Source of the DNA: an uncultured Candidatus Saccharibacteria bacterium
GTDB lineage: Bacteria; Patescibacteriota; Minisyncoccia; Phycocordibacterales; JAKAEA01
DNA length: 64,000 nucleotides
Direction of reading: 5' to 3'
Assembly (NCBI GenBank): GCA_964532205.1
Contig: CAZHGQ010000004.1
Span: 3,118-67,117 of the forward strand
Part shown: positions 52 through 61,722 of the stretch, piece by piece
Layout of the letters: every line of letters starts with the position of its first letter
Numbering within the stretch: the stretch's first letter is position 1
Notes under the pieces: model-generated
The model's database searches: none
What the model was told of the DNA's origin: nothing
What the model saw: the letters and a program-made list of their open reading frames with translations, nothing else
Program-made: the position numbers and the translations under genes

Positions 52-2880
52 TTATTGAGTGAGTACTGCTCGTACTTTTATATTATCACCTAACGTAGCA
101 GGTGTGTAGCGAATAAATGTTGTGTCATTGCCCTTATCGGTTGTATTGTAGCTCCCCCACGATGAGCCGTCGGTGGTTTTTTCCCAGGTACCGGTCGCCG
201 ATGTAGTGTAATCATTCACGAGCAAGTCACCAGTCACAGCGTTATACAACCTGACACGCAGTGTCGGCACAGTACCACCAAAAGCAGTGGCGAATCGCCA
301 CGCAAACCGCTTGTTTACAGCACTCGATTTAGCAACCGAAGGCTGATAATGCGAATCGGTGGCATTGGCAGTGTCATCATAAATCACTGTGACACTGAGA
401 ATTTGAGGGGGTATACAAAAAACACCAATCGTAGAGAATTCAAACATAAACTGGATGCGGCGCGAGCCAGATAGACTCGTTAAATCTCCATCTTTTTCTA
501 CCAAGGTCCATTCACCCGTATTATCATCAATACCTTTCAATCGATAGTAGAGTCGATATGGTTCAGGAGCAATACAAAAACCGTTTGGTCCCATTTGACA
601 ATTTCTATTTACAATTACTCGCTGAAACTTGGCACAGTCTGGAGTGTACATCGCCGGCGTAATCGCGCGTTGATTTGTAGCTGCAGCACGTGACCAATCT
701 GCTGACAATGGCAGAGCATACATTTGATGTAGTGCGGCAGTGGCACCATGCTTAACAATGTGCGCGACTCCATTTTCACTCCATACTGTCTGCATCTGTG
801 AGGCGGTATTGTAGTGTAGAACTGTTTGTGGATTAAGATCAATGACATAGTCAGAACCGGAGCCAATCGTTCCAGCTGACGTACTGAGTGTAATAGATGT
901 ACCAGAAGTATAGGCCGATATGGTATACCATGTTGAAATGAGCGTTGGATCAGTTGAACCAAAACCTATTCTAAAACCAATCATACCCGTTGTAAAAAAG
1001 GTATTCGTACCCGTTACCCCCGTACCAGACACTGCCACAGTACCAGAAGAAACGTATGCCTCACCATTCATTGAAACCTGATCCTGTTGTTTATCATCGA
1101 TACCAAAAATTTGATCAAATGGATTGCCGGCTTCCTGTGGGTAGCGCGTTACATAATTTCGATACGCGCTAGCTCCGGTCGACATCACAATAAGTCTGTC
1201 CATGGCGTCAGCAATTTCAACCTGGTTCAAGTTTGTTGTTGCAGGAAATGTACCTGTTCCACCTGGTGGGATTTCTGGACGATTATCAGATGTCCAGTGC
1301 AAACTTCCAAAAACAATTCTTGATAAAGCCGCTCGATATATACGTGTAGCAGTCACAAAATAAAGAGATTCCTCACCTGCCCCCGGACCATGATTCAAAG
1401 TACCGATTCGCCCATTGTTTACAGGTTGAATAGTACCAGTTAGAAGTTCGTTACCTGTTGCAATAACATCAGCTGAGTCAATAACAAAACTCGTACCAGC
1501 GTTAATCGTACCAGCTGATGAAGTTAAAGTGATAGACGTGGCTGAAGAGTATGACGCAATTGTGTACCAAGTAGCAATAGCCGCCGGACCGGTCGAACCG
1601 AAACCAATTTTCATACCTACCATACCCGCTGTAAATGTGGTGCCGGAGCCAGTGACTGCCGTACCAGAGACAGCAACTGTGCCGGTTGAATAGCTACTTA
1701 CCGAGATTGTCATTTTACCCGAAGCCACAGTACCCGTAGCACGCAAATTATAACGATATATTTTAGCGTAGGAAGATGTGTACCCATCGAGTACATAAGC
1801 ATAGTGAAGAGTCTTACTTACCTCTGATTGAACCGCCAAACCACACGCAGACACATTTGTTACTACGTTAGCAGTCGTTCCAGCATCCGACATCCAATAC
1901 ACAGCTTTGATGTTATCGGTATTTGTAGCCGCAGAAATAGTTGTGCCACCCACGACGAAATCAGAATAATTTACACCTTTAACAAGATATAATCCACCAT
2001 TTGTGGCTGTACCGTTTATTGTTGTTAAACCAAAACGTAGCTCTTCAATAACATATGTTGAGCCAGCAGCGATTGTACCGGCAGACGAGGCTAATGTAAT
2101 ACTTGTATTATTGGTAATCGCAGAAATCACATACCAGCTTGAAATCTGAGTTGGATCAGTTGAACCAAAACCAATACGAGCACCGACTGCCAAACGCTCG
2201 TCTTGCCACAATGTATTTGTCCCTGTTACAGCGGTTGTCGAAACCTCGACTGTGCCAGCAGTATGCAAATAACGGAACGCTCTAAATCCACGAATCGTGT
2301 GGGCTGTTGCAGTTGGTAATGTTGCAATAATAAAACCCTTCCAAGTATAAGCTGAGGTTGTTTTGTTAAATTCATAAAGCGTAATTTGTCGCGTAGCCAC
2401 AGCAGTTGCCAGGTTTTGCACCATAAACACCCAATCGACTGTCGAGCTGAATGTGATGGCGTGAGGAAACATGTACGGAATATTGGCCACAATGACAAAG
2501 GGACGACCCGAGTTCACCGTACCCGCTGATGAACCGAGAGTCAAAGATGTGCCCGATCCACGAGTTGAAATGTTGTACCACGTTGTAATTTGTGCTGGAT
2601 TGGTTGAACCAAAACCAATGGCCATACCACCAGCATTTGCAGGAAAATTCGTACTAGAACCTGTAACCGCTGTACCCGAGACCGCCACTGTTCCTGTTGT
2701 ATCTACCACCTCCTGCATCGGTCGGGCAATTCCAATTGGCAGTGGTCCAACAAATTTATCCGTCGCCGCTGAGCCAGTGTTTTGAATTATCAAAGATCCC
2801 AAACTGGTTTTATTTGGATCATAGGAAGTAATCGGTGTCGTTGTTCCAGTAAAAAGATGTTTTACAGCTCGTGATGACAT
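52..2880 (-). CDS. Giant repeat protein, paralog 1 of 3 (942 aa), about 90-aa modules with IGFGST-P-QI-WY motif; no signal peptide
   Basis: Long ORF starting 1-2 nt after paralog 2. Internal repeats (GTVAVSGTAVTG ... IGFGSTxPxxI..WY.I ... TSITL.SSAGTI). Conserved N-term (M..RA..H.F.G.TTPI.SYD) and C-term (YIRYTP..L.D..KVRA.LTQ) shared with the two upstream paralogs. Confidence 0.75.
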   Translation of the reverse strand: MSSRAVKHLFTGTTTPITSYDPNKTSLGSLIIQNTGSAATDKFVGPLPIGIARPMQEVVDTTGTVAVSGTAVTGSSTNFPANAGGMAIGFGSTNPAQITTWYNISTRGSGTSLTLGSSAGTVNSGRPFVIVANIPYMFPHAITFSSTVDWVFMVQNLATAVATRQITLYEFNKTTSAYTWKGFIIATLPTATAHTIRGFRAFRYLHTAGTVEVSTTAVTGTNTLWQDERLAVGARIGFGSTDPTQISSWYVISAITNNTSITLASSAGTIAAGSTYVIEELRFGLTTINGTATNGGLYLVKGVNYSDFVVGGTTISAATNTDNIKAVYWMSDAGTTANVVTNVSACGLAVQSEVSKTLHYAYVLDGYTSSYAKIYRYNLRATGTVASGKMTISVSSYSTGTVAVSGTAVTGSGTTFTAGMVGMKIGFGSTGPAAIATWYTIASYSSATSITLTSSAGTINAGTSFVIDSADVIATGNELLTGTIQPVNNGRIGTLNHGPGAGEESLYFVTATRIYRAALSRIVFGSLHWTSDNRPEIPPGGTGTFPATTNLNQVEIADAMDRLIVMSTGASAYRNYVTRYPQEAGNPFDQIFGIDDKQQDQVSMNGEAYVSSGTVAVSGTGVTGTNTFFTTGMIGFRIGFGSTDPTLISTWYTISAYTSGTSITLSTSAGTIGSGSDYVIDLNPQTVLHYNTASQMQTVWSENGVAHIVKHGATAALHQMYALPLSADWSRAAATNQRAITPAMYTPDCAKFQRVIVNRNCQMGPNGFCIAPEPYRLYYRLKGIDDNTGEWTLVEKDGDLTSLSGSRRIQFMFEFSTIGVFCIPPQILSVTVIYDDTANATDSHYQPSVAKSSAVNKRFAWRFATAFGGTVPTLRVRLYNAVTGDLLVNDYTTSATGTWEKTTDGSSWGSYNTTDKGNDTTFIRYTPATLGDNIKVRAVLTQ

Positions 2881-2881
2881 A

Positions 2882-5335
2882 TTAGTTTTGTGTTAACACT
2901 GCTCGAACATCGATACCGTCAGTGAGAGATGTTGGGGTATATCTGATATACGTAGTTTCATTCGTTTTATCGGTCGAGTTATAACTCCCCCAAGCTACCC
3001 CATCATTGGTGGATTTTTCCCACACACCGTTAGCAGCCGCCACAGTTGTATCCGTCAACAAAGAGGCTCCGGTCACGGCATTGAACAACTCAATCTTTAA
3101 GGTTGGAACTGTTTTACCAAACGAGCAACACATTCGCCAAGCAAATCGCTCATTAGTCACATCAGATTGTGTGGTAGAAATTTGAAAATGTGAATCAGTA
3201 TTACCATCCTCAAACAATACAGCCACGTCTAGCAACCGGCTCGGTATCATTAGTCCGCCCATAATACAAAATTCAAACATAAATTGGATGGCGTTGGCTG
3301 CTGTTACACCCGATAAATCACCATCATCAGTAAGCAATACCCACGAACTTGTGGCATCGGAAGAAATATCTGACGTTCGATAATATACTCGAAACGGATT
3401 TGGTGGCAATTGGAAATTGCCACTACCCAAATATTCATCACACAAAACTGTGACCCGATCAAACTTCACACAACCTGTTGTACTTAAAGATGGCGTAATG
3501 ATGCGCTGGTGATTGGCTGGACTTGTAGTATACGCAAAGTCCCAATGCGCACCGATCGGTAATACGTACATTTGGTTTAAGGTGGCGCCGGTACTTGAAC
3601 GAATAATGTGCAAAACACCGCCCGTACTTATATCACACGTCAAAAGTTGGTTGGCATGCTGAAAGTGTACCGGCGCCAACGAACTCAACGCAGATTGATC
3701 CTGTTGTTTGTCATCAACACCGAATGCATATTCAAATGGCATACCATCACTTTCAGGATATTTAGTCAGGTACTGTCGATACGCCGCGTTAGTAGCAAAT
3801 GCCGTCACCACAAAACGATCAATTGAATTGGAGTATTGTATATTGAGCATTAAACCGCTGGCTGGAATGTTTGCTATACCACCTGGCGGCACTTCCTGTC
3901 TGGCATTTGCTCCTGTTATATACGTAGTACTACCAGCGGTAATTCCTGTGAGGGCGGCACAATAAAGTCTCGTAGTCGTTACAAAATAAAGATACGCCGC
4001 ACCAGACCCCGGCCCATGCGCTGCAGTTGCAATCGTACCATTGTTACAAGCGGCGTTTGGAATTGTACCTGTCACAGAAAAGTTACCAGTAATAACAACG
4101 TTAGTACCAGATGACAACGTCATTTTTCCGGTTGCCACAGCATTGTTTGAGCGCAAATTATATTTAAACACCTTTGCCGTTGATGTGTTTGTGCCATCCA
4201 ACACATATGCCCAGTGTGTGGTTTTGTCTGTTTCGACATCAACAGCACAGCCGTTTGGTGCAGTGTTAGTCACTGTGGCTGCGTCTGCCAGCCAGTATAC
4301 CCCTCGTTGATTATCGACGTTTGTAGCTATAGCCGGAAACGTGTTGCCTGCGGTTGTAAAATCAAGATAACTAGCGCCTTTGAGTAAGAATAGACCACCG
4401 TTTGTTGGTGCGGTGGCTTGAGACACAGCTAAAGCGAATCGTAATTCCTCAATCACATACGATGTACCCGCTGCAATGACACCTGGCGACGTGGTGATGT
4501 TAAGTGATGTATTGCTAGCGATAGAGCCAATTTGATACCAATTTACAATCTGTGTCGGATCAGTTGAACCAAAACCAATGCGCGGACCCAGACCGCCGGC
4601 GACAGCTGTTGCACCGGTACCTGCAGCAATTAGTTCACTGGTAAACTGTGTACTTGAACCAGTTACCGTACACGAAGCAATGACGAATGTAGTACTTGCC
4701 GGGATCGCGCTTGAAGCACCTGAAACCGTGATCGAGGTCGTGTTAGTAAATGTAATGATTGGATACCAACAGTTAATTTGAGCAACGTTGGTGCTACCAA
4801 AACCAATCATCTTACCAACCATAGCTGAAGTGAATGTCGTACCAACACCAGTCACCACACCAGAGACGGCCATAGCCACAGTACCTGTAGCATAAACACT
4901 AGCTGGAGCCGCGACAGCTACCGTACCCGTTGTATGTAAATATCGCAACGCTCGAAAACCACGAGTGGTGTTGGCATTGGCAGCGCTTGGTAATGTGGCG
5001 GTAATAAAACCCTTCCAATTATACGTACTCGAAACTTTGTTATATTCGTACAAAAAGATACGACGGGCTGCGGTTGCCGACGCTAAGTTTTCAGTCAGAA
5101 ATACCCAATCAATCGTTGAACTGAACTGTATGATGTGTGGGTACATCATAGCCACAGCTGTTGACTCTTCTGCTGGTCGAGCCACTGTTACCGGCAAAGG
5201 ACCCGCATAATTATCCTCCGGGTTAATGCCGCTTTTTTGGATCATCAACGTACCTAGATTTGTCTTTGTCGAATCGTATGAACTTATGGGCGTTGTGGAT
5301 CCAGTAAACCGATGTTCTGTAGCGCGAAGTGCCAT
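2882..5335 (-). CDS. Giant repeat protein, paralog 2 of 3 (817 aa)
   Basis: Same architecture as 52..2880 and 5337..7976. Shares a near-identical 142-bp tract with paralog 3. Confidence 0.75.
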   Translation of the reverse strand: MALRATEHRFTGSTTPISSYDSTKTNLGTLMIQKSGINPEDNYAGPLPVTVARPAEESTAVAMMYPHIIQFSSTIDWVFLTENLASATAARRIFLYEYNKVSSTYNWKGFITATLPSAANANTTRGFRALRYLHTTGTVAVAAPASVYATGTVAMAVSGVVTGVGTTFTSAMVGKMIGFGSTNVAQINCWYPIITFTNTTSITVSGASSAIPASTTFVIASCTVTGSSTQFTSELIAAGTGATAVAGGLGPRIGFGSTDPTQIVNWYQIGSIASNTSLNITTSPGVIAAGTSYVIEELRFALAVSQATAPTNGGLFLLKGASYLDFTTAGNTFPAIATNVDNQRGVYWLADAATVTNTAPNGCAVDVETDKTTHWAYVLDGTNTSTAKVFKYNLRSNNAVATGKMTLSSGTNVVITGNFSVTGTIPNAACNNGTIATAAHGPGSGAAYLYFVTTTRLYCAALTGITAGSTTYITGANARQEVPPGGIANIPASGLMLNIQYSNSIDRFVVTAFATNAAYRQYLTKYPESDGMPFEYAFGVDDKQQDQSALSSLAPVHFQHANQLLTCDISTGGVLHIIRSSTGATLNQMYVLPIGAHWDFAYTTSPANHQRIITPSLSTTGCVKFDRVTVLCDEYLGSGNFQLPPNPFRVYYRTSDISSDATSSWVLLTDDGDLSGVTAANAIQFMFEFCIMGGLMIPSRLLDVAVLFEDGNTDSHFQISTTQSDVTNERFAWRMCCSFGKTVPTLKIELFNAVTGASLLTDTTVAAANGVWEKSTNDGVAWGSYNSTDKTNETTYIRYTPTSLTDGIDVRAVLTQN

Positions 5336-5336
5336 A

Positions 5337-7976
5337 TTAATATTGGGTCAGTAATGCCCGAACTTTCGTATTGTCTGGTAATGTTGCAGGTGTGTAACGA
5401 ATATATGTTGTTTCGTTAGCCTTATCAGTTGTGTTGTATGCTGTCCAATTACTACCGCCATCCGTTGTTTTTTCCCAGGTGCCAGCTGGTGTAGCACTGT
5501 TATCGTCGAGCAACAACCCGCCAGTCACAGCATCATAAATACGCACCCGGAGTGTTGGCACAGTTGTATTGAAAGCTGTAGCAAATCGCCAAGCAAATTG
5601 TTTGCTTGCCAAAACTGTTTTGCCTGTTGAGGGTTGATAGTGAACATCTGTTGAATAATCATCATAAAGCACTGCTAATGACATAATTCGTCCCGGCACA
5701 CACAAGAGACTTATAGTCACGAACTCAAACATAAACTGAATATTTTCTGCTGGGGCTAAACCAGTTAAATCACCGTCTTCAGGTAATGCAGTCCAGGCAC
5801 CGGAATTGTCAGTAATACCATTTGTTCGGTAGTACGAAAGAATTGATCCAGTTGGAATTCGAAACTCTTCACTACCCAGGTGATCGACAACAGATGTTAA
5901 CATTCGTCGAAAAGCCGAACAGTTAGGCGTAGAAATCGAAGGCGTAATTACCCGCTGATTTGTAGAAGATGCATAGTACCAATGCGCTGATAAAGGTAGT
6001 GCGTACATCTGACACAGCGCTGCCGTTGTGCCGTGTTTAATAATGTGTGCAATACCATTTTCACTCCACACCGATGTAACTTGCGATGCGGTATTGAAGT
6101 GAATTGGCGCGTTTGGATCGGCAGTTGATTGATCCTGCTGTTTATCATCAACACCAAAGAATCGATCAAATTGATCGCCGGCTACGGCCGGATAACGAGT
6201 AACATATTGTTTAAAAGCAGTGGCACCAGTGGTAAGCACAATCAGGCGATCAATAGCACTGGCAATCTCTACTGCGTTTAAAGCACCTGTGGCAGCAAAA
6301 GTGTTGATGCTACCGGGAGGGATTTCGGGTCGGTTATCAGAGATCCAACCAAGGTTACCAGCAAATATTTTTGAAACCGCTGCCCGATATATACGCGATG
6401 CTGTCACAAAATAGAGCGATTCCTCACCCGCTCCTGGACCATGGTTAAGTGTGCCAATACGACCATTATTCACCGCTACTACTGTACCAGTTACCAATTG
6501 ATTACCAGTACAAATCACATCGGCCGAATCAATAATATAGGCAGTACCACCACCAATCGTACCAGCAGACGAAGAAAGCGTGATTGAAGTACCCGAAGAA
6601 TATGCCGAAATTGTGTACCAAGTGGTAATGAGAGCTGGGCTCGTCGAACCAAAACCAATTTTCATGCCTACCATTGCGGCAGTAAATGATGTACCTGTTC
6701 CTGTTACTGCCGTACCTGAAACAGCCACACTACCGGCAGTTGTGTAAGCAATACTCATGAGCATTTTACCTGACGTAATAGTACCCGTGGCCCGTAAATT
6801 ATATCGATAGACCTTCATGTAGGTTGAGCCAACGCCGTCGAGTACATACGCATAATGCAAACCTTTATTAATTTCATCCTGAATCGCCAATCCGCAGGCG
6901 GCGGTGTTGGTAGATACGTTTGCTGTTGTGCCTGCATCACAAAGCCAGTACACACCACGTTGATTGTCGACACTACCAGAAATAGAGGGGAATGTGTTAC
7001 CGGCACTTGTGAAATCCAAATAGCCCACACCCTTACACAAATAGAGTCCGCCGTTTGTGGCCGTCGTGTTTGTCAACGCCATAGCAAAACGTAATTCCTC
7101 AATAACATATGCTGTACCGGCTGGAATCACACCCGGTGAAGTCACCAGGTTCAATGATGTTTCACTGGCAATTGCGCCAATTTGATACCACTGTGTAATT
7201 TGTGTTGGATCAGTTGAACCAAAGCCAATGCGCGGACCTAGACCGCCGGCGACAGCCGTGACTGTCGTACCGGCAGCAATATCTTCAGTCACAAATTTAG
7301 TATTAGTACCCGTTACCGTACAAGACGCAATGACATAGTTAGCTGAAGCCGCAATTGCACTTGAAGCGCCTGAAACTGTAATCGAGGTCGTGTTGGTAAA
7401 TGTAATGATTGGATACCAACAGTTAATTTGAGCAACGTTGGTGCTACCAAAACCAATCATCTTACCAACCATAGCTGAAGTGAATGTCGTACCAACACCA
7501 GTCACCACACCAGAGACGGCCAAAGCCACTGAAGTACCCGCCGAGTAGTAGCTCACAGGTGCAGCAACTTCAACCGTACCTGTAGTATGCAAATATCGTA
7601 AGGCTCGAAAGCCACGAGTTACGTTTGTGGCCGTCGGTGTTGTAGCAGTAATAAAACCTTTCCAGTTGTATGTGCCTAAGACTTTATTATATTCGTACAA
7701 AAAAATACGCTTAGCAGCAGCTGCGGCGTTTTCAATTAAAAATACCCAATCAATCGTTGAACTATAAGTAATAGCGTGCGGGTACATCATAGCCACGCTA
7801 GTTGATTCTTCTACTGGTCTGGCAACCGCCACAGGTAGAGGCCCAACAAAATTATCCTCTGGGTTGGTACCACTCTTTTGAATCATGAGTGTTCCCAGAT
7901 TTGTCTTGGTCGGATCATATGAGGCGATCGGCGTCGTAGCCCCATTAAAAATGTGTTCAACAGCTCGTAAAGCCAT
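5337..7976 (-). CDS. Giant repeat protein, paralog 3 of 3 (879 aa)
   Basis: Same architecture. Stop lies 2 nt from the upstream gene (7979). Confidence 0.75.
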   Translation of the reverse strand: MALRAVEHIFNGATTPIASYDPTKTNLGTLMIQKSGTNPEDNFVGPLPVAVARPVEESTSVAMMYPHAITYSSTIDWVFLIENAAAAAKRIFLYEYNKVLGTYNWKGFITATTPTATNVTRGFRALRYLHTTGTVEVAAPVSYYSAGTSVALAVSGVVTGVGTTFTSAMVGKMIGFGSTNVAQINCWYPIITFTNTTSITVSGASSAIAASANYVIASCTVTGTNTKFVTEDIAAGTTVTAVAGGLGPRIGFGSTDPTQITQWYQIGAIASETSLNLVTSPGVIPAGTAYVIEELRFAMALTNTTATNGGLYLCKGVGYLDFTSAGNTFPSISGSVDNQRGVYWLCDAGTTANVSTNTAACGLAIQDEINKGLHYAYVLDGVGSTYMKVYRYNLRATGTITSGKMLMSIAYTTAGSVAVSGTAVTGTGTSFTAAMVGMKIGFGSTSPALITTWYTISAYSSGTSITLSSSAGTIGGGTAYIIDSADVICTGNQLVTGTVVAVNNGRIGTLNHGPGAGEESLYFVTASRIYRAAVSKIFAGNLGWISDNRPEIPPGSINTFAATGALNAVEIASAIDRLIVLTTGATAFKQYVTRYPAVAGDQFDRFFGVDDKQQDQSTADPNAPIHFNTASQVTSVWSENGIAHIIKHGTTAALCQMYALPLSAHWYYASSTNQRVITPSISTPNCSAFRRMLTSVVDHLGSEEFRIPTGSILSYYRTNGITDNSGAWTALPEDGDLTGLAPAENIQFMFEFVTISLLCVPGRIMSLAVLYDDYSTDVHYQPSTGKTVLASKQFAWRFATAFNTTVPTLRVRIYDAVTGGLLLDDNSATPAGTWEKTTDGGSNWTAYNTTDKANETTYIRYTPATLPDNTKVRALLTQY

Positions 7977-7978
7977 AT

Positions 7979-8602
7979 TTATACTTCTTTGTAATCAATA
8001 TTAATTTGTACCGTGGTCGTACCTGAAATCACACAATACAAGGCTTCATCTACCCCACCCTCAATGTAGTTGGGGTGATTATTAGCACCATATAAACCCC
8101 CAGCTTTTGGTGAGACATATTTCTCATGATCCGTACCACCGGAGGTAAACCTAAATGAAACTGATGTCGCGTCAGCAGTCAGTGAAAAACGACTAGCGTA
8201 AACCCGAATTTTTTTTCCTGAACCAGGCACTCGCACATTACCCGACGAAGATAAACTTGTTGTAAGTTTAGTAACTCCCTGTCCAGAAATTAAAGAGCTG
8301 AGAGTGTCTTCAGTAGCTGGATTGATTCTGGTGTTGGTAGCATTTTTTAAACCAACCACGCTTGATGACGGTGTACTACCCATGACATAAGCCGAGGCTT
8401 TGCTGGGCATCATTTGCGAGACGGCAATACCCACTCCTGCTACACCGAGCGCTTTAAGAAAATGTCGTTTGCTATCATCACTTATTACTTCCCTGGTTTT
8501 TACGTCAGTCACCAAAACAGACGCTGGTGTTTCTACCTGCGTTTGCGGTTCGGTTATTTTTCTATTTCGTACAAAACGAAAAGAGTGTTTGTTACTGTAC
8601 AT
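7979..8602 (-). CDS. Exported protein with Tat-like signal (KRHFLKALGVAGVGIAVS ... ASA), 207 aa; true start may be downstream of the annotated Met
   Basis: S-K-R-H-F-L-K motif followed by a hydrophobic h-region and AxA. First gene of the tight four-gene minus-strand cluster, next to tatA. Confidence 0.5.
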   Translation of the reverse strand: MYSNKHSFRFVRNRKITEPQTQVETPASVLVTDVKTREVISDDSKRHFLKALGVAGVGIAVSQMMPSKASAYVMGSTPSSSVVGLKNATNTRINPATEDTLSSLISGQGVTKLTTSLSSSGNVRVPGSGKKIRVYASRFSLTADATSVSFRFTSGGTDHEKYVSPKAGGLYGANNHPNYIEGGVDEALYCVISGTTTVQINIDYKEV

Positions 8603-8645
8603 AAAAACTACAAACTCACAACATCATTACATGTTGCGTAAAGAA

Positions 8646-8819
8646 CTAGCGCTTTTTCTGCTCCGGTCCGGGTGTTTCTGACTCATCCTTGAAGCCCCCA
8701 CGGATATGTCGAATTGCTTCGCCAATGCCCTTAGCCAATTCTGGCACTTTCTTGGCACCAAACAACAAAACAATAACCGCTGCTACAATGATGATCTCTT
8801 TTGTTCCGAGTCCAAACAT
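8646..8819 (-). CDS. tatA: Twin-arginine translocase subunit TatA/E (57 aa; not in ORF track)
   Basis: My translation: MFGLGTKEIIIVAAVIVLLFGAKKVPELAKGIGEAIRHIRGGFKDESETPGPEQKKR. N-terminal TM helix plus amphipathic helix, the canonical TatA layout (LLFG.KK.PEL.K..G). Confidence 0.75.
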   Translation of the reverse strand: MFGLGTKEIIIVAAVIVLLFGAKKVPELAKGIGEAIRHIRGGFKDESETPGPEQKKR

Positions 8820-8930: not shown

Positions 8931-8955
8931 AAAAAAGCCCTTGCGGGCTTTTTTG
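8931..8955. terminator. Bidirectional rho-independent terminator (gcccttgcgggc hairpin flanked by A/T runs)
   Basis: aaaaaagcccttgcgggcttttttg, immediately downstream of minus gene 8956..9519. Confidence 0.7.
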
Positions 8956-9558: not shown

Positions 9559-10533
9559 CTACAAGATTGAACCGTTAACAAAGAAAGAAACGGTGTACCA
9601 CAGACCGACCATGATCAATACGAGAATCAGTCCATAACTAACATGACGAACATTATGAGATTTAAAACCGGATCGCAAAATGCTACCAAATACAATTAAG
9701 AGCAGTATGCCGATGAGGTCATAGACGAGCGCCAGAATCATGCGCGGACTTGTCGCTGGGACTGCTAATGGATTTTGAGATATGTTTTCGGCAGCACCAA
9801 GTACTGCTGTTGTAGCCTCCACGACCGGCCACTCTTCATTCTTGACTGCAATTGGTGTAGTCGCTGGGGTGGTCGAAGCGCCAGTTACAGCCACAACATT
9901 CGGTTCAGCTTTTTTGGGCTTAGCCACTGTCGCGACAACCGGTGTCACTTCACCTTCTGGGGATGAACCAAACATCTGAACGACAAATGTGGTTTGGCGA
10001 CCTTCGTATATCCCATCCACAACAGCAATACCGACATGAGTGTATCGGCCATTCATAATATTAGCGCGATGAAGTGGTGAGTTAAGCCAAGCTTGATTGA
10101 CTGCTGAAGAATCAGAAAAATCAATAGCCAGATTTTCTCCGGCATACACAAAAGAATATCCGGCCTGAGAAATCCAGTACCACGGCGATGTACCATCCGG
10201 CGCATAATGCGCAAAGTAACTACGATTGATCATGTCCTGAGCCTTGGCTAAGGCGGCTTTTTCCAGACGTGGGTCAGTCACCAATGCCGGTAACCCTGCC
10301 CCAGCTCGATCCTGATTGGCTAACAATGTCAGAGCGGAAGCATAAACTGCAGCCGAATTTTGCTGGCCAATAAACAGATTTTTCTGGAAACCAATAACCA
10401 CGAATAAACAGATGATAATAATAAAAAGAACGGCCGCGCCAACTTCTGAAAGAAGTCTAGGCGCGAAGCCGTTCTTTTTATGTGAGAGAAATAAGTGTGA
10501 CAGGAAGCGTTTCATCCTGTTATTATTCCACAC
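9559..10533 (-). CDS. CAP/SCP (PR-1/YkwD-like) domain protein with N- and C-terminal TM segments
   Basis: NQAWLNSPLHRANIMNGRYTHVGIAV matches the CAP-domain signature (SPGHRANIL...G). Confidence 0.65.
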   Translation of the reverse strand: MWNNNRMKRFLSHLFLSHKKNGFAPRLLSEVGAAVLFIIIICLFVVIGFQKNLFIGQQNSAAVYASALTLLANQDRAGAGLPALVTDPRLEKAALAKAQDMINRSYFAHYAPDGTSPWYWISQAGYSFVYAGENLAIDFSDSSAVNQAWLNSPLHRANIMNGRYTHVGIAVVDGIYEGRQTTFVVQMFGSSPEGEVTPVVATVAKPKKAEPNVVAVTGASTTPATTPIAVKNEEWPVVEATTAVLGAAENISQNPLAVPATSPRMILALVYDLIGILLLIVFGSILRSGFKSHNVRHVSYGLILVLIMVGLWYTVSFFVNGSIL

Positions 10534-10550: not shown

Positions 10551-11780
10551 CTAGTTGAGGACAGGCATTGGACCTTGAGCACCTGGGCACACAATAGAGT
10601 TAATCTTCCAACGTGTTGTCTTGTAGACATAGCCAGTTGAAACATTTGCCTTACCGAGACCGACATCGGCCCATGGTTTCAAGACATCAACATTATTCTT
10701 GAGCTGGAAGGCATGAACTGCGGCCAATGTAGCTGCATCATACACACCATTAATCACAAGCTTAGTCTGTTCATGATCATTGAGGAATTTTTGTAAGAAA
10801 ACTACATCGTCAATGTTGTTTCTGCCGCCAAATTTAATGTAGCTATTGAGCATTGGACAGCTTGGACCAGTACTTGCACCGAGAACCGTGCCGCCAGTAC
10901 CACCAACATATCCTACATAGTTACCACCACCCGTTGCTGGAGGAGGTGTGTTATCAGATGCTGGAGCGTGGTAAGTATTTGTAATGGTACATGTAACCGG
11001 AGCCATACCTGCAGTGCCGCTACATGTGTCACTGAGTTCAAATGTGTAATGGGCTGATGCAGTAGTCGTTGCTTCAGTTACGGCAAAAGATTTGTTTCGA
11101 AGAACCATAAACGTACGGGTGCTTGAGGCTGCACCTGAGTAAACTTCTGAGCCATTTGATGTTACGTTGACAATAAAATCAGATGTAGAAGCAGTACCAC
11201 CAGACACAACAACCTGAACTGTAAGCTGGGTTTTTACTGGTGGACAACCTTTTGTGTCACCAAAGAATTTGCAGCATTCATTGTTATGATCATTACCAAA
11301 ATCCCATGGATCACAACAACGATCGTTACCATTACCGAAGTCACGTGAATCACAGCAGCGATCACCGCCATTACCAAAATCATGCGAATCGCAACATCGG
11401 TCATTGTTGCCAAAATCGTGACTGTCGCAACATCGGTCATCATTGCGACCAAAATTATCACGGTCACAACATTTATCATTACCACCACCGAAATCATTGT
11501 CATTGCAGCAGTTGTCATGATTACCAAATGAAGGACCGCAATTGTTACCACCGCCACCGCCACCGCCAAAAGATGCAACTGGCGAAGAGCCGCCCTCTGA
11601 GTCGACTGCCGGCCGTACATCATCTGCAATGGTTGTTTGAGTACCAATATCTGCAGAAATTTCTGTGCCGATTTGATCAACCACAGTTGCAGTCTGAGCC
11701 ATTGTTGCACCAGCGGGCAAAAAAGCTACCGCGAGTGTCATGTACACAGCTAAAGCCTGTACTGTTATGTGTTTTTTCAT
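10551..11780 (-). CDS. Secreted cysteine-rich tandem-repeat protein with C-terminal peptidoglycan-binding-like domain
   Basis: Signal peptide. About 6 tandem 11-aa repeats (DRCCDSHDFGNN). C-terminal FLQKFLNDHEQTKLVINGVYDAATLAAVHAFQ resembles PG_binding_1. Confidence 0.6.
   Translation of the reverse strand: MKKHITVQALAVYMTLAVAFLPAGATMAQTATVVDQIGTEISADIGTQTTIADDVRPAVDSEGGSSPVASFGGGGGGGNNCGPSFGNHDNCCNDNDFGGGNDKCCDRDNFGRNDDRCCDSHDFGNNDRCCDSHDFGNGGDRCCDSRDFGNGNDRCCDPWDFGNDHNNECCKFFGDTKGCPPVKTQLTVQVVVSGGTASTSDFIVNVTSNGSEVYSGAASSTRTFMVLRNKSFAVTEATTTASAHYTFELSDTCSGTAGMAPVTCTITNTYHAPASDNTPPPATGGGNYVGYVGGTGGTVLGASTGPSCPMLNSYIKFGGRNNIDDVVFLQKFLNDHEQTKLVINGVYDAATLAAVHAFQLKNNVDVLKPWADVGLGKANVSTGYVYKTTRWKINSIVCPGAQGPMPVLN
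11270..11520. repeat. Tandem approx 33-nt coding repeats (Cys-rich CCDxxDFGN modules)
   Basis: Repeated ...gtcacgatcaccgccattaccaaaatcatgcgaatcgcaacatcg... units visible in the sequence. Confidence 0.6.
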
Positions 11781-11914
11781 ATTAATTTATAAGTTAATAA
11801 AATACTTAACCGAGATGGGGTAAATATATAGCAAAGACGGCTGAAGTCAAGGATACATACAATAGCTAAAATCTGTATGAAAACTGCGGCCTTCGGCCGC
11901 AGTTTTTTGACATA

Positions 11915-12403
11915 TTACATCTGAACAGGTGGTACTGGTGGAGGTGGTGGAGTCTGACTTGGAGGAACTATAATAATTGGTCCACCGAAGTAATATTCCT
12001 TAACCTGGAACAATATATAGAAACCAATGACTAGACCGATAATCATACCAACGATATTCATCATAACCAAACTACTCAAAGCACTCACCAACATACTATA
12101 GAAAGAGAAATTCCAGCCCTTTGGTGACGGCTTGAACAAACCCGGCAACGCAACAGCTTCGAGTACGAGCGCTACCACACTCAACAGGAGCGAGATATAC
12201 CAGCCACCTGAAAGACCACCATAAACGGCGTAAGGCATGACAGCACCCAAACCAAACAAAGCCAAGAGTGCAGGCAGACCGAACAAAATACTGATAATCA
12301 CAAGGTACGGAGCAACTTTGACGATGAACTCTTTACCACCCTTTGGCAACTGTGGAGCCTTTTTGCCAAAATACACATTCAATGTCTCAATTAATTGATT
12401 CAT
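11915..12403 (-). CDS. Polytopic membrane protein with Pro-rich C-terminus
   Basis: Four hydrophobic helices. C-terminal PPSQTPPPPPVPPVQM. Confidence 0.5.
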   Translation of the reverse strand: MNQLIETLNVYFGKKAPQLPKGGKEFIVKVAPYLVIISILFGLPALLALFGLGAVMPYAVYGGLSGGWYISLLLSVVALVLEAVALPGLFKPSPKGWNFSFYSMLVSALSSLVMMNIVGMIIGLVIGFYILFQVKEYYFGGPIIIVPPSQTPPPPPVPPVQM

Positions 12404-12525
12404 AACATCTATTAGGTTTATAAACTAACCCCCTTATGATACACCATTGGTAGCTAAGCTCAACTGTCAGATTTTCCCTACCCTAGCGTCTCTATGCTTG
12501 CAGGTTTATACATTAAATAAATAAC

Positions 12526-12672
12526 ATGGATCAAGATAAACAACACAAAAACGATGATCAAAAAGATGAAGATATGATGAATGATGAGGATAAAGAAGAT
12601 AAGGATAAAAAAGATGATGAAGACGAAGATGAGGATGACACCGATTCTTCAGATGATTCGTCTGGAATGTAA
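12526..12672 (+). CDS. Small hyper-acidic protein (48 aa, D/E/K-rich; not in ORF track)
   Basis: Translation MDQDKQHKNDDQKDEDMMNDEDKEDKDKKDDEDEDEDDTDSSDDSSGM. Followed directly by a terminator hairpin. Confidence 0.35.
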   Translation: MDQDKQHKNDDQKDEDMMNDEDKEDKDKKDDEDEDEDDTDSSDDSSGM

Positions 12673-12675
12673 ACA

Positions 12676-12699
12676 AAAACCGCACATTGTGCGGTTTTT
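12676..12699. terminator. Bidirectional rho-independent terminator (accgcacattgtgcggt)
   Basis: Perfect hairpin flanked by A-run and T-run, between convergent genes. Confidence 0.7.
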
Positions 12700-12704
12700 G
12701 TTTC

Positions 12705-13199
12705 CTACATACTCATTGGCATATGCGGTGAACGATACCCCATCAACTCGGGATTAAGCATACCGAAGATCATGGCAACATGCGCCACCACCAAGAAGAT
12801 GGCGACAAAGATTGCATGGAGTCGCAATTTTTCTTCCGAAGTTTTACCACGCGCTATTAGATTAAACTCAAGCAGCGAAATTCCGACTAATGGAATAACA
12901 CCCAATAAATAAAATCCAACCGCAATCACATCAGCCGGACCACGCCAGCCGCCAGACACAGTAAGTGGTACTACAGCATTGAAGAACAGATAGAAGAACA
13001 CTCCCAGAAAATAGATACCGACCAAAGCCCCAGCCCAACGATTTAAACTTTTTACCCAACCATCAACTGGCCGTTTAAAGAGAATATATAGTTCACTGAC
13101 AGCAATTGTTTCCGCCAAAATAACTGGTAACGCCATGAATATAATAAGATTCCATGGCTGATTTGAAGCTAAAAGCTCCATATAGTGAGTCATTGTCAT
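12705..13199 (-). CDS. Integral membrane protein (hypothetical)
   Basis: Four to five hydrophobic helices; no recognisable motif. Confidence 0.5.
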   Translation of the reverse strand: MTMTHYMELLASNQPWNLIIFMALPVILAETIAVSELYILFKRPVDGWVKSLNRWAGALVGIYFLGVFFYLFFNAVVPLTVSGGWRGPADVIAVGFYLLGVIPLVGISLLEFNLIARGKTSEEKLRLHAIFVAIFLVVAHVAMIFGMLNPELMGYRSPHMPMSM

Positions 13200-13228
13200 A
13201 GATACGTTAATTAATTAATAATAATTAA

Positions 13229-13609
13229 TTAACGGCAAGGACTATGTTCAAAAAGAGAGAGCCATCGGGAGATCAGCAAACGCTGTCCCACGTCCTTCGG
13301 CACGTCACCTGATTCAAAACAGAAAAGTGGTTGGAGTTTGAGGTAGCGTAACGAGTATTCATAAATAAACAGTGCCACCACAACAGTTAGCAGCAAAACC
13401 AAGAACAGGCTTGGTTGAACATTTGAAAATGACTGGTAGGCCGAAACGTGTTCAACACTCATTAGCACGCCCTGAGCAAAACAATCTACAGCAGAAGCCA
13501 TTACCCCACTCGACATTACATCATGATTGGGTTTTTCACACAGTGCAGTAAAACCAACCACAGAAATCGAGATGAAGATAAGAGTAAATAATATGACAAA
13601 CCACTTCAT
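13229..13609 (-). CDS. Small membrane protein, paralog of 21103..21720 (shared GxxASAVD, MSVxH, RWLSLFE[HN]SP motifs)
   Basis: Clear similarity to the copper-operon membrane protein at both N- and C-termini. Confidence 0.55.
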   Translation of the reverse strand: MKWFVILFTLIFISISVVGFTALCEKPNHDVMSSGVMASAVDCFAQGVLMSVEHVSAYQSFSNVQPSLFLVLLLTVVVALFIYEYSLRYLKLQPLFCFESGDVPKDVGQRLLISRWLSLFEHSPCR

Positions 13610-13650
13610 ACTTTCATCCTACTCTTTTTTTATGTTTTTTCAATGAAATG

Positions 13651-13677
13651 AAAAACCCCAAACACAAGTTCGGGGTT
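13651..13677. terminator. Probable terminator hairpin (aaccccaaac...gttcggggtt)
   Basis: Imperfect stem with one G-U pair and flanking A/T runs, downstream of 13704..14159. Confidence 0.4.
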
Positions 13678-13703
13678 AAAGTATGGTCTTCATGGAAACC
13701 TCT

Positions 13704-14159
13704 CTAGGCAACCTTGGTACCACAACGCGGACAGAATGCGGCGTTGGTAGGAAACACAAGATCACACTTTGAACATGACAATTTTCTGAACATCTCAATG
13801 GAAGGAATCTTCTTTTGCTTTGCCCGGCATTCAGCAACACGCAGAAGATACTCTCTTACCTGTTGATGGTGTCCGAAAATTTTCGTATCGTTGCACCATT
13901 CTAAAATGTGACGCACCGACCAAAAATCGTACATCGACACGAGTTCTTTTGCCAAATATAACGCCCGCACATCGTGTGATGGCAATGATCTAATTTTCTG
14001 CAAGATGTCTATGGTCTTTTGGTGCCTTTTACCTAATTCAAACACGCACAAAAAAAGTGAAAGACCAAAATACCCACCCACACAGCACACGGTAACAACG
14101 AACCAATTCGGGAGCAAATCCATGAGAACTCCTTTGTAAAATCTTCCGGTATAATACAA
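13704..14159 (-). CDS. Membrane-anchored protein with C-terminal zinc ribbon (CSKCD...CPRCG)
   Basis: N-terminal TM helix and CxxC-x13-CxxC motif. Confidence 0.5.
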   Translation of the reverse strand: MYYTGRFYKGVLMDLLPNWFVVTVCCVGGYFGLSLFLCVFELGKRHQKTIDILQKIRSLPSHDVRALYLAKELVSMYDFWSVRHILEWCNDTKIFGHHQQVREYLLRVAECRAKQKKIPSIEMFRKLSCSKCDLVFPTNAAFCPRCGTKVA

Positions 14160-14180
14160 CTTATTTACAAAAAGTCAATA

Positions 14181-14606
14181 TCACTCCGCATCCCAAAATG
14201 TGCGGCCAGTTTTATAGGCTTCGATAGAATCATGAATTGTGGCAAAGAGCGGTTCGGGTAAATCAGTAAGATCGTACCAACCCCAATGCTCTAGTTTGTC
14301 CGGTTCAAGTACCTGTGGTTCACCCGACTGCCAATCCGCAATCAAACCAATGTGAACATAATGTTTTGGCGCATAACGTTTAATATTTGAAACATATAAA
14401 AAGCGCAGATTTTTTATCTCTATACCACACTCCTCCCCGATTTCTCGTAAGGCACATTCTTTATATGACTCCATGTATTCCAGGTGACCGCCGGGAAATG
14501 CATATTCACCCGAGCCATGTGAACCCTTGCGTTTGCCGAGCAAGACTTTACCGTCTTTTAGAATCATAATGCCTATACCGACGCGAGGTTTTGTTTCTTG
14601 ATTCAT
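14181..14606 (-). CDS. NUDIX hydrolase
   Basis: Nudix box GGHLEYMESYKECALREIGEECGIEI (Gx5Ex7REUxEExGU). Confidence 0.8.
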   Translation of the reverse strand: MNQETKPRVGIGIMILKDGKVLLGKRKGSHGSGEYAFPGGHLEYMESYKECALREIGEECGIEIKNLRFLYVSNIKRYAPKHYVHIGLIADWQSGEPQVLEPDKLEHWGWYDLTDLPEPLFATIHDSIEAYKTGRTFWDAE

Positions 14607-14617
14607 GAAATCGGTGT

Positions 14618-14746
14618 TTAGGAAACTGTGATATTTTCAGCTTGTAATATGTAATTAACTAATGCTGGCACCCACTGCTTTTGAGTAATTAAAAGACCAA
14701 TGCCGATTATGATTAAAATGAGCAAGAAAATTCTTAAGGCTTTCAT
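14618..14746 (-). CDS. Possible 42-aa single-TM peptide
   Basis: My translation: MKALRIFLLILIIIGIGLLITQKQWVPALVNYILQAENITVS. Unannotated short ORF. Confidence 0.2.
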   Translation of the reverse strand: MKALRIFLLILIIIGIGLLITQKQWVPALVNYILQAENITVS

Positions 14747-26561: not shown

Positions 26562-28154
26562 ATGAACCAAACTACTCCACGAATACTCTACATATACGCC
26601 AGAAAATCCTCTGAAAGTGAGGACCGGCAAGTTCAATCTATCGACGATCAGGTGAACCGCCTAAAGGAGCTGGCAAACAGTCTGGGAATCACTATCAAAG
26701 AGGTTCTGACAGAAGCTAAGTCTGCCAAGAAGCCGTATTGCCGACCAGTCTTCGATGACATGCTCAAACGCATTCAGCGAGGTGAGGCTGATGGCATTCT
26801 TTGTTGGCAACTTAATCGACTTTCTCGAAACCCCGTTGATAGCGGAGCTCTTAGCTGGATGTTGCAGCAAGGAGTTTTAAAATGTATTCAAACAATTGAT
26901 CGTCAATATTTACCTGATGATAACGTCCTTCTTTTTAGTGTTGAAAGTGGGATGGCAAATCAATTTATTATTGATCTTAAGAAAAACAGCATGCGAGGAA
27001 TGGTTGGAAAAGCTGATCGAGGTTGGCTACCCTCTCGTGCTCCGATGGGATATTTAAATGACAAACTCGAACATACAATCATCGAAGATAAGGACCGTTT
27101 TGATTTGGTCCGAAAGATGTGGGACGTGATGCTTACCGGCAATTACACTCCTTCTCAAATTTTAAAGACTGCAAATGATAAGTGGGGCTTTAGAACTCCC
27201 AAAACAAAACGAAGTGGTGGCGGTGAACTTGCCAACAGCATGATTTATAAGATATTCACCAACATCTTCTATACCGGCATGTTTGAATGGGCTGGAAAGC
27301 TGTATAAGGGCAACCATAAGCCCATGATTAGCCTTGAGGAGTTCGATCGGGTCCAAGCTATCCTGGGCCGAAACGGTAAGCCACGCGGCCAGACTCATGA
27401 GTTTGCATACACTGGCCTTATTTACTGTGAAGAATGTGGCTCGATGTATACCGCAAGTGAAAAAACCAAGTGGGTTGAAAGTGAAAAGAAGTTTAAAACA
27501 TATATTTACTATAACTGCACACGACGTAAGAAAGGAATCACCTGTACGCAAAGAAAACCGATTACGCTCGAAAAACTTGAGGAACAAGTAGACATTCAAC
27601 TTGAGCGATACAGCATTCTTCCTAAATTTAAAGATTGGGCTCTTGAGATTTTGAACAGAGAAAATAATAAAGAGATTGAGGACCGAACCAAGGTCTACGA
27701 GACACAGCATAAAGCAGTCGCCGAAACTCAAAAAGAAATCGACGCTCTTACCAAGATGCGTTATCGAGAATTGATTGATGATGAGACCTTTGTGAAAGAA
27801 CGTGACGATTTGAAAGCAAAACTTACCAAGTTAAAGGCCAATCTGCACAATACCGAAAACCGAGCCGAGAAGTGGCTAGAACTTACTGATAAGACATTTA
27901 ACTTTGCCTGCTATGCACGAGAAAACTTTAATTCTGGGACCTTGGAGAAGAAGCGAGAAATCTTTGCAGCACTTGGTTGGAACTTTTCAATAAAAGACAA
28001 AATAGTGAGCATTAAAGCCAATGATTGGTTTGTTCCAATAGAAAAAGCTTACCCAGAGCTTGAAGCTGAATATCGTCGGTTGGAACTACAAAAATACCTT
28101 TCAGCTGAGGCACGAAATGCTGCTTTTGCCTCACTCATTCTACGTTGGGGTTAG
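26562..28154 (+). CDS. Large serine recombinase rec1 (resolvase N-domain, recombinase domain, zinc ribbon, coiled coil)
   Basis: YARKSSESEDRQVQSIDDQ catalytic-Ser region. CEECGSMY...YYNCTRRKKGITC zinc ribbon. About 60% identical over the N-domain to 60008..61657. Stop codon lies inside the 268-bp inverted repeat. Confidence 0.85.
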   Translation: MNQTTPRILYIYARKSSESEDRQVQSIDDQVNRLKELANSLGITIKEVLTEAKSAKKPYCRPVFDDMLKRIQRGEADGILCWQLNRLSRNPVDSGALSWMLQQGVLKCIQTIDRQYLPDDNVLLFSVESGMANQFIIDLKKNSMRGMVGKADRGWLPSRAPMGYLNDKLEHTIIEDKDRFDLVRKMWDVMLTGNYTPSQILKTANDKWGFRTPKTKRSGGGELANSMIYKIFTNIFYTGMFEWAGKLYKGNHKPMISLEEFDRVQAILGRNGKPRGQTHEFAYTGLIYCEECGSMYTASEKTKWVESEKKFKTYIYYNCTRRKKGITCTQRKPITLEKLEEQVDIQLERYSILPKFKDWALEILNRENNKEIEDRTKVYETQHKAVAETQKEIDALTKMRYRELIDDETFVKERDDLKAKLTKLKANLHNTENRAEKWLELTDKTFNFACYARENFNSGTLEKKREIFAALGWNFSIKDKIVSIKANDWFVPIEKAYPELEAEYRRLELQKYLSAEARNAAFASLILRWG

Positions 28155-61657: not shown

Positions 61658-61722
61658 ACCTCCAAGCCCTTGCGGGCGCTACCACCTCAAGGTAGTGCGT
61701 CTGCCAATTTCGCCACCTGCGC
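61639..61722 (-). tRNA. tRNA-Leu (GAG), long variable arm
   Basis: Hand fold: acceptor GCGCAGG/CCTGCGC, anticodon loop TTGAGGT, variable arm CGCCCGCAAGGGCTTGG, T arm AGGTTCAAATCCT. Confidence 0.7.

Follow-up and report, generated by a model that had tools for sequence, protein, structure and literature searches.

A Tat-linked operon of phage-related, signal-less beta-rich proteins in Paceibacteria: a candidate route for the export of folded structural proteins

The window considered here is a 64,000-nucleotide (nt) stretch of contig CAZHGQ010000004.1 from an uncultured Candidatus Saccharibacteria bacterium. At its left end lies a compact minus-strand operon, in which a gene from the twin-arginine translocation (Tat) machinery is linked to a protein with a Tat signal and to three large, signal-less paralogs with relatives in phages. 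The first operon gene in this genome is tatA (8646-8819; 57 amino acids, aa), followed by a gene referred to here as 'small' (7979-8602, 207 aa) and by the paralogs P3 (5337-7976, 879 aa), P2 (2882-5335, 817 aa) and P1 (52-2880, 942 aa). A further gene, X, begins 1 nt past the P1 stop (1-50, ATG at 50-48, MIKLEKGQKVFDKPNLV...) and is truncated by the window edge; it is homologous to X of L001 and L002, two of the loci used for comparison (L-numbers below). The spacers between 'small', P3, P2 and P1 measure 2, 1 and 1 nt, consistent with translational coupling of these four genes, the coordinates and close packing of which agree with an earlier note on this DNA. The unannotated tatA that the note had placed beside the cluster reaches 55.2 bits on the TatA/E model TIGR01411 (cut-off 53.9) and shares 90% identity with the TatA annotated by Pfam in L002. 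A short GC hairpin (GCCCGCAAGGGC) with a T-run (8931-8948, minus strand) is located 3' of the upstream 187-aa gene; its stem of four pairs was seen by direct reading and is below the listing of the terminator scan. It is probably the upstream operon limit, with the transcription unit starting at tatA.

The 'small' protein comprises an N-terminal tail, a variable linker, a Tat signal and a ~135-aa beta-sandwich domain. Its signal peptide region (8390-8479, minus strand; residues 42-71, DDSKRHFLKALGVAGVGIAVSQMMPSKASA) contains the motif SKRHFLK, followed by a hydrophobic stretch and ASA. The KR-type twin-arginine-like signal proposed earlier for this protein is borne out: it scores 22.5 bits on TIGR01409 (cut-off 16.7), and 15.8 on the Pfam model TAT_signal (PF10518), under the cut-off of 22.7. 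The h-region FLKALGVAGVGIAVSQMMP has a Kyte-Doolittle mean of 1.35, and no other open reading frame of the 64 kb combines a motif of this type with a hydrophobic stretch behind it. Aligned over 66 orthologues, the motif shows R46, F48 and K50 without exception and K45 in at least 90%; one of the displayed orthologues has R-R, not K-R. Conserved throughout are [KR]R.F[LIV]K, the hydrophobic region and an A-x-A site (ASA or AEA). Strong conservation is also found at the extreme N-terminus (M..NK[HY]SF[RK], here M..NKHSFRF) and in the mature domain, where AlphaFold2 (AF2) predicts a beta sandwich for residues 110-207 at a predicted local distance difference test score (pLDDT) of 67-88. The leader also occurs in front of other cargo: in the Gribaldobacteria locus L047, a 709-aa protein encoded between tatA and tatC (1307-3436) carries the 'small' leader (MIPLKYSFKLL ... 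NKKRVFLK ... ADA; LVFGSTPAANVVGVKNTSNAKINPATEETL) fused to a different cargo. The leader and the first ~35 mature residues seem to form a reusable export cassette.

The P proteins are 52-63% identical to each other, with well-conserved N and C termini, as expected from the earlier description of three 800-950-aa paralogs. None carries a signal peptide: a hydrophobic N-terminus is missing, in line with the Sec signal reported absent before, the maximum Kyte-Doolittle value over 19 residues stays below 0.9 as compared to 1.35 for 'small', and in the AF2 model of P2 the N-terminus is predicted to lie within beta strands. Sequence searches of Pfam, NCBIfam, PADLOC and the PDB with P1-P3, X and Y returned nothing significant. 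A defence system was rejected as a candidate on the missing PADLOC match, and the homology to an intracellular enzyme family that the note had raised did not emerge, the Pfam and NCBIfam searches containing no enzyme-family match. The family is indeed as unrecognised as first described; PHROG matches are limited to an inserted module and its immediate flank.

This module (consensus GTVAVSGTAVTG...IGFGST.P..I..WY.I......SITL..SAGTI..G..YVI) is 71-77 aa long, not the ~90 aa first estimated, and its copies are dispersed over five separate insertion sites (A-E) in a common all-beta scaffold instead of forming a tandem array. Their number varies in the proposed manner, with most copies in P1: (i) P1 contains four, at sites A (2488-2700, residues 61-131), C (2044-2262, residues 207-279), D (1477-1689, residues 398-468) and E (838-1050, residues 611-681); (ii) P3 contains three, at B and C (7098-7544, residues 145-293) and D (6528-6740, residues 413-483); (iii) P2 contains two, at B and C (4448-4891, residues 149-296), all on the minus strand. 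The widespread ~710-aa members of the family differ from P2 by missing module B and thus have module C as their sole module. The first ~80 residues of the 'tail fiber protein' families PHROG 1591 and 1980 are this same domain: PHROG 1591 matches P1 in four stretches (7.1e-18) and P3 at 6.2e-4, and phage relatives of P match these tail-fibre families at 1e-6 to 7e-4. Only the P protein of L004 aligns beyond the module (profile positions 3-242 of 484, 6.6e-5). A profile of the module retrieved spurious light-harvesting-protein matches only from the PDB and Pfam.

The AF2 model of P2, computed with 115 homologues, is entirely beta, with a pLDDT of 90.9 and a predicted template modelling score of 0.86. 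In our reading, it may begin with N-terminal hairpins, continue with a propeller of several blades that carries the modules in the loops between them, and end in a ~200-aa C-terminal beta-rich region, blade count and domain limits being taken from the secondary-structure string and not from coordinates. Foldseek against the PDB places podovirus nozzle proteins on top (cyanophage P-SCSP1u at 1.9e-8, Kp9 and T7 gp12; the top entries are 8i4m_A at 1.9e-8, 7y1c_Y and 9jyz_P), followed by bacterial sialidases, endo-arabinanase and phage endosialidases. The top matches in the viral library BFVD include P22 gp10-like 'stabilization' proteins and tail tubular protein B (4.9e-11 to 1e-7). The superpositions on nozzle proteins are weak (TM-scores of 0.14-0.31, about 0.2, at a root-mean-square deviation of >17 A), alignment of the P family profile with T7 gp12 by hhalign gave a probability of 0.3%, and no nozzle family in PHROG or Pfam matches the P proteins. 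The assignment of P as a nozzle protein was dropped in view of the hhalign and TM values: the nozzle is taken as the closest shape among solved structures, and P is not assigned to its family.

Among 114 diverse members, nearly every residue conserved in at least 90% is G, W, F, Y, P or I. This set is structural, not catalytic, which favours a role in structure or binding over one in catalysis; P as an enzyme was rejected on this conserved set and the absence of a catalytic one. The same evidence bears on the view of P as an exported glycoside hydrolase of the sialidase-propeller type, or a lectin, with inserted binding modules and with host or environmental glycans as its target. The Foldseek matches to sialidases (1.7e-6), endo-arabinanase and phage endosialidases speak for it, as do the predicted layout of propeller, inserted small beta domains and C-terminal beta-rich region, which would resemble such enzymes, and one Asp-box-like S.DGGSNW motif near the C-terminus. 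However, no BNR or sialidase match is obtained from Pfam even at E 0.1, the residues conserved across the 114 members include neither an Arg triad nor a Tyr/Glu/Asp set, and the sialidase-type TM-scores are 0.2-0.29; a pure lectin is compatible with these data, but overall we consider a glycan-directed role highly improbable.

Two small genes, X and Y, complete the set. X (L001 15284-15871; L002 15261-16067) has a conserved ~100-aa N-terminal domain and an acidic, STTTP-rich tail of 60-190 aa, of a kind typical of extracellular linkers; in several genomes it ends with the conserved basic C-terminal motif EEVVAFAKKLVKKKISKKLGL. Y (57-63 aa; L001 15879-16061) terminates in a glycine run of variable length and an almost invariant NIFIMSE, and the Y-like proteins of phages have different C-terminal ends. 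Neither a signal peptide nor a family match was found in X or Y.

Conservation of the gene order ties these proteins to the Tat system. A search with P2 yielded 1,346 proteins, all unnamed or 'hypothetical', with Pacebacteria, Zambryskibacteria, Vogelbacteria and Parcubacteria as named sources; among 1.84 billion cluster representatives, searched with a profile, 408 clusters only were found. The order small-P3-P2-P1-X-Y is identical at every genome locus complete enough to show it, and the P3 orthologues of other genomes measure 877-883 aa. Tat genes adjoin the operon at all 11 genome loci with enough flank: tatC-tatA directly follow Y in nine, a divergent tatA-tatC pair lies upstream in one, and in one tatA lies upstream as in the window, the contig stopping after Y. 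The linkage was also approached from the Tat side, using a TatC query and looking up six matches of this TatC clade. Four of the six sampled tatC genes directly follow small-P(n)-X-Y; L049 holds the P trio with adjoining Tat genes, in L046, L050 and L051, small is joined by one P (886, 715 and 887 aa, respectively), X, Y, tatC and tatA, and L047 has the different cargo with the same leader. A metagenome scan with single-P forms gave 80 loci, 16 of which have small and/or Tat genes; P-X-Y-tatC-tatA is present in 12 of the 12 such loci having downstream sequence. The Tat link, first noticed in one window, is thereby backed far beyond it, with tatC/tatA in or beside the operon at every locus with enough flank. 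The basic unit is small-P-X-Y-tatC-tatA, and the trio is a lineage-specific triplication. The operon in the window is the form seen in the ultra-small Paceibacteria, other lineages having one P.

A second recurrent trio flanks the Tat operon (L047 6862-11404, L049 6191-12661, L050 10892-15956, L051 1029-5682) and encodes a large dockerin/MG2-like protein, a ~300-aa protein and a 400-660-aa protein; the latter has a faint Big_13 match in L047 and L050. A Sec-type signal is present in the L047 copy. A possibly similar set of 434-466, ~290 and ~580 aa is located at L001 1453-5384 and L046 1670-5714, with no dockerin/MG2 match and a faint Big_13 match in L001.

Relatives of P are also found in phages. 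On IMG/VR and metagenome contigs, P occurs as a single gene of ~705-735 aa; small and Tat genes are missing there, and a 55-65-aa Y-like gene, a short X-like gene or both usually come next. In L004 and L063, terminase and portal are followed by a 350-aa protein that has the 'small' domain at its end and lacks a Tat signal, and then by P, X, Y, protease and major capsid; L053 has terminase, portal and the same type of 350-aa protein. P is accompanied by myovirus baseplate genes in L013 (tape-measure/tube-cap, gp27/gp5-like hub and a collagen-like protein), by collagen-like fibre genes in L006, by terminase and portal in L008, L014 and L110, and by a T4 gp17-type terminase with intein on the 239-kb contig L057. 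In this contig, the terminase (11840-14626) is interrupted by the intein-like domain and adjoins the P homologue; it probably belongs to a large phage. A hidden Markov model of the 'small' domain detects in phages only the ~350-aa homologues of L004 and L053, with the domain at the C-terminus and without Tat signal, and gives no match to the C-terminal domains of those fibre-like proteins that phages encode upstream of P. Since the phage 'small' domain lacks the Tat signal, the signal is specific to the cellular form. P has also multiplied independently without Tat genes (L016, L018, L117-L120, L124, L126, L130), for example as a trio of ~815, 814 and 804 aa after a 64-67-aa X-like gene, or as four P genes of 1255, 1494, 1107 and 801 aa on a 300-kb contig.

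Do these relatives imply that the cassette is still viral, that is, a phage or prophage structural cassette (a tail-fibre/receptor-binding set, or a tailocin- or gene transfer agent-like part) serving a virus-like particle? The module matches to PHROG 1591 and 1980, the phage structural clusters that harbour P relatives and the podovirus nozzle proteins among the best fold matches are in its favour. The surroundings of the operon are different: in the window its neighbours are CAP-domain, peptidoglycan-binding and metal-resistance genes, in other genomes cell-division, translation and other housekeeping genes (mraZ, mraW, ftsI, murE; prfA, ftsEX, pyrG), and phage genes are absent both from the closest 20 kb of the window and from the flanks of the 11 genome loci. 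Furthermore, the same arrangement recurs across genera, the triplication is older than the divergence of four genomes (see below), Tat signal and Tat genes are confined to the cellular form, and tblastn of P1 and a phage P against 50,697 GenBank phage records gave no match. A persisting viral function is highly improbable in our view. Of the phage-tail-fibre-like host-range cassette suggested initially, the phage kinship stands, on PHROG 1591/1980 and the phage structural clusters; the host-range cassette does not hold at this locus, which has no flanking phage genes and is syntenic across genera.

P1, P2 and P3 each form an orthologous group across four genomes in a rough neighbour-joining tree without support values, which places the triplication before the divergence of these genomes. 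Between P2 and P3, a tract of ~165 nt in module B (P2 copy 4703-4867, residues 157-211; P3 copy 7353-7517, residues 154-208; both minus strand) is 100% identical in amino acids and 96% in nucleotides in a codon-aligned sliding window, with a third-position identity of 0.87-0.94 compared to a background of 0.35-0.6. The tract is resolved only by the codon-aligned window, an ungapped repeat finder giving 73% over 300 nt for P2 versus P3. Across nine genomes, the within-genome identity of the P2/P3 segment is 0.70-1.00, compared to a median of 0.65 between orthologues of different genomes; the segment is module B in eight, and in L002 the motif-anchored extraction took the module-C segment. The tract identity is 100% in two other genomes (loci compared: L001, L002, L021-L023, L027, L033, L034). 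This pattern is concerted evolution by gene conversion, homogenising rather than diversifying the paralogs. The paralog switching considered by the earlier note finds no support, as order, sizes and module content are constant across genomes. A cassette-switch system was rejected for this constancy and because no recombinase gene lies next to the operon; the recombinase genes found in the window are only in a separate GC-rich island (26.5-61.7 kb).

Many contigs of metagenome-assembled genomes (MAGs; L020, L026, L028, L031, L032, L035-L045) stop inside the array, often ~360 residues into P3, and the near-identical paralog tracts probably break short-read assemblies at this locus, which is of practical concern for MAGs. 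These breaks and the 96% identical 165-nt tract are what could be said for the three paralogs being assembly duplicates of one gene, a possibility also raised by the earlier note. Elsewhere, though, the paralogs mostly share 50-80% DNA identity, their module content differs, and the same three groups, each paralog with orthologues of its own, recur in independent assemblies; collapsed duplicates were rejected on these grounds, and the chance that they explain the trio is negligible.

The reading we favour, with slightly less than even confidence, is that of a phage-related structural cassette exported in folded form by its own TatAC, the signal-less P proteins riding on 'small'. It suggests a Tat machine that places a phage-derived structure on the cell surface, and we infer the export of P, its riding on 'small', the surface location and the binding target. 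Export could proceed in the following manner: P1-P3 would reach their fold in the cytoplasm, X and Y perhaps taking part. The folded P proteins would bind the jelly-roll domain of 'small', and the operon's own TatAC would carry the folded cargo across the membrane via a hitchhiker route. Virion-type proteins fold, and often assemble with helpers, in the cytoplasm, which fits the need for folded export via Tat. Exporting the P proteins singly (~100-115 kDa, carrier included) would be more realistic than exporting a ~295-kDa complex. Outside, the proteins may form a surface structure, the module-decorated face of which would most plausibly bind a host cell or the cell envelope. Binding surfaces are suggested by this face and by the module sets, which differ among P1-P3. 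Many bacteria of the candidate phyla radiation (CPR) are thought to live attached to other cells (PMC9166423), and for this reason host attachment or an envelope layer appears the most plausible role; the surface-layer or adhesin proposed in the earlier note is a plausible form of it.

The weightiest rival holds that 'small' alone is the Tat substrate. P1-P3, X and Y would then be cytoplasmic, acting in intracellular assembly or as factors for 'small', and the linkage would reflect co-regulation. In its favour, signals of every kind are missing from P, X and Y, the size of the P proteins is high for Tat cargo, and their phage homologues act without an export signal. Export of 'small' only leaves unexplained, however, that behind a 15-kDa exported domain there always come 8 kb of signal-less, tightly coupled genes, with tatC/tatA at the far end; an STTTP-rich tail such as that of X would be out of place in the cytoplasm, and the position of the phage counterparts among virion structural genes suggests particle-surface parts rather than cytoplasmic factors. 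We regard this rival as unlikely, but as deserving more weight than a viral function, a glycan enzyme or lectin and an assembly artefact, which follow in this order.

Several observations weigh against folded co-export by TatAC. We read its key step, the co-export, from gene order alone, and no tatC is present within the 64-kb window; orthologous loci have tatC directly after Y, which corresponds to a position beyond the left edge here. In size, the P proteins are 87-100 kDa each, and three P plus mature 'small' (~135 aa) would sum up to ~295 kDa as calculated from their lengths. To our knowledge, this exceeds any established Tat cargo; the total being too large, the model needs one-by-one export. 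SLH, LPXTG and lipobox wall anchors were found in none of the operon proteins. As to the presumed adaptor, the whole-chain mean pLDDT of 'small' is a moderate 63.8, and the fold search with this protein retrieved only generic jelly rolls at E ~1e-3 (a phage capsid cement protein, Ena pilus subunits (Ena3A), PirA and CBM6). The TatC locus of L048 (Wolfebacteria) contains neither the cassette nor a leader-bearing cargo. Finally, in a rough neighbour-joining tree, again without support values, the Tat-linked forms fall into at least four clades interleaved with phage and non-Tat forms; this interleaving suggests repeated exchange and a complex history.

A more far-reaching version, possible although we doubt it, extends folded co-export to the origin and main purpose of the system. 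Paceibacteria may have taken a phage particle-surface cassette, made up of a jelly-roll adaptor, a propeller decorated with modules and a pair of small assembly factors, and connected it to a dedicated TatAC. In these cofactor-poor symbionts, Tat would then mainly export a pre-assembled attachment structure of phage type, with signal-less proteins of 90-100 kDa travelling on a 15-kDa carrier and triplicated in one lineage. As a still bolder sub-reading, compatible with the weak nozzle fold match, the three paralogs might form a nozzle-like hetero-hexameric conduit at the host contact.

No description of the operon or its proteins was found in the literature, curated families, defence models or solved structures. 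Tat genes have been noted in Paceibacteria, and no Tat substrates in this group are named in the literature found, as far as the available part of the source goes (PMC9166423). The operon offers a specific, testable answer to what Tat does in CPR bacteria, and provides a candidate envelope or attachment structure from a conserved family of >1,300 proteins that is currently without annotation. If hitchhiking is true, Tat cargo extends to large, cofactor-free structural proteins of viral type, and a new route for domesticating phage parts exists. The Tat signal, hitchhiking and domesticated phage parts are known; their combination, with translocase genes inside an operon of cofactor-free, phage-type structural cargo, class-wide, is new to us.

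Elsewhere in the window, a GC-rich block of ~34 kb (26562-61722; GC 0.51-0.55 compared to 0.41-0.45 elsewhere) is bounded by large serine recombinases at 26562-28154 and 60008-61657, with a third at 38267-39850, and contains tRNA-His and tRNA-Leu at 61525-61722. Its cargo includes two TraG/TrwB-like coupling proteins, a 2,569-aa RHS-repeat protein, a cNMP-binding plus TIR (Pycsar-like) protein and an AAA_15/21 ATPase; the block looks like an integrated mobile or defence island. Nearer to the operon, a 409-aa protein (10551-11780, minus strand) has a signal-like N-terminus, Cys-rich ~13-aa repeats (..DRCCDSHDFGN..) and a C-terminal peptidoglycan-binding domain, and is adjoined by a CAP-domain protein (9559-10533).

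Among known systems, the Tat hitchhikers are closest in export logic. Multi-subunit hitchhiking on the Tat pathway is established for E. coli PaoABC (PMC4273604). The operon shares with such complexes one signal-bearing subunit and signal-less partners encoded together, and the proposed export of a pre-folded multi-protein assembly. E. coli HybOC and DmsAB are further hitchhiker complexes; the known hitchhikers are cofactor-containing redox enzymes, with their Tat genes elsewhere in the genome. The cargo described here differs in having no match to a cofactor-binding or enzyme family and in having kin in phage particles, the Tat genes lie within the operon, the signal is of the K-R type, and co-export is a proposal.

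With respect to the P proteins themselves, bacterial surface-layer proteins differ from P, which lacks a secretion signal and an SLH or other anchor domain, and a prophage or tailocin locus would have capsid, portal, terminase, sheath, tube or baseplate genes as neighbours, unlike the operon. Sialidase propellers, such as the Micromonospora sialidase (1w8o) and the phage K1F endosialidase (1v0e), have a layout similar to that predicted for P (Foldseek 1e-6 to 4e-4), whereas P has a single Asp-box-like motif and neither catalytic residues, BNR repeats nor sequence similarity. The PHROG 1591/1980 tail fibres share the ~80-aa N-terminal domain, which they have once at the N-terminus; in P it is present up to four times, in loops of a scaffold to which no PHROG corresponds. 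Podovirus nozzles (T7 gp12, the 'tail tubular protein B', and P22 gp10) resemble P in length (~800 aa) and in the all-beta make-up with a propeller core that is predicted for it. In contrast to nozzle genes, the phage relatives of P are found in head, baseplate and collagen-like fibre contexts and not beside an adaptor gene, and the cellular operon has no phage neighbours. Tailocins, extracellular contractile injection systems (eCIS) and type VI secretion systems (T6SS) are cellular machines made from phage parts; they derive from contractile tails, have their own release or secretion routes, which sets them apart from the operon, and we know of none that uses Tat. The likeness to them is one in kind only: in these systems, as in the operon, virion-type proteins are kept in the chromosome under purifying selection for a cellular purpose.

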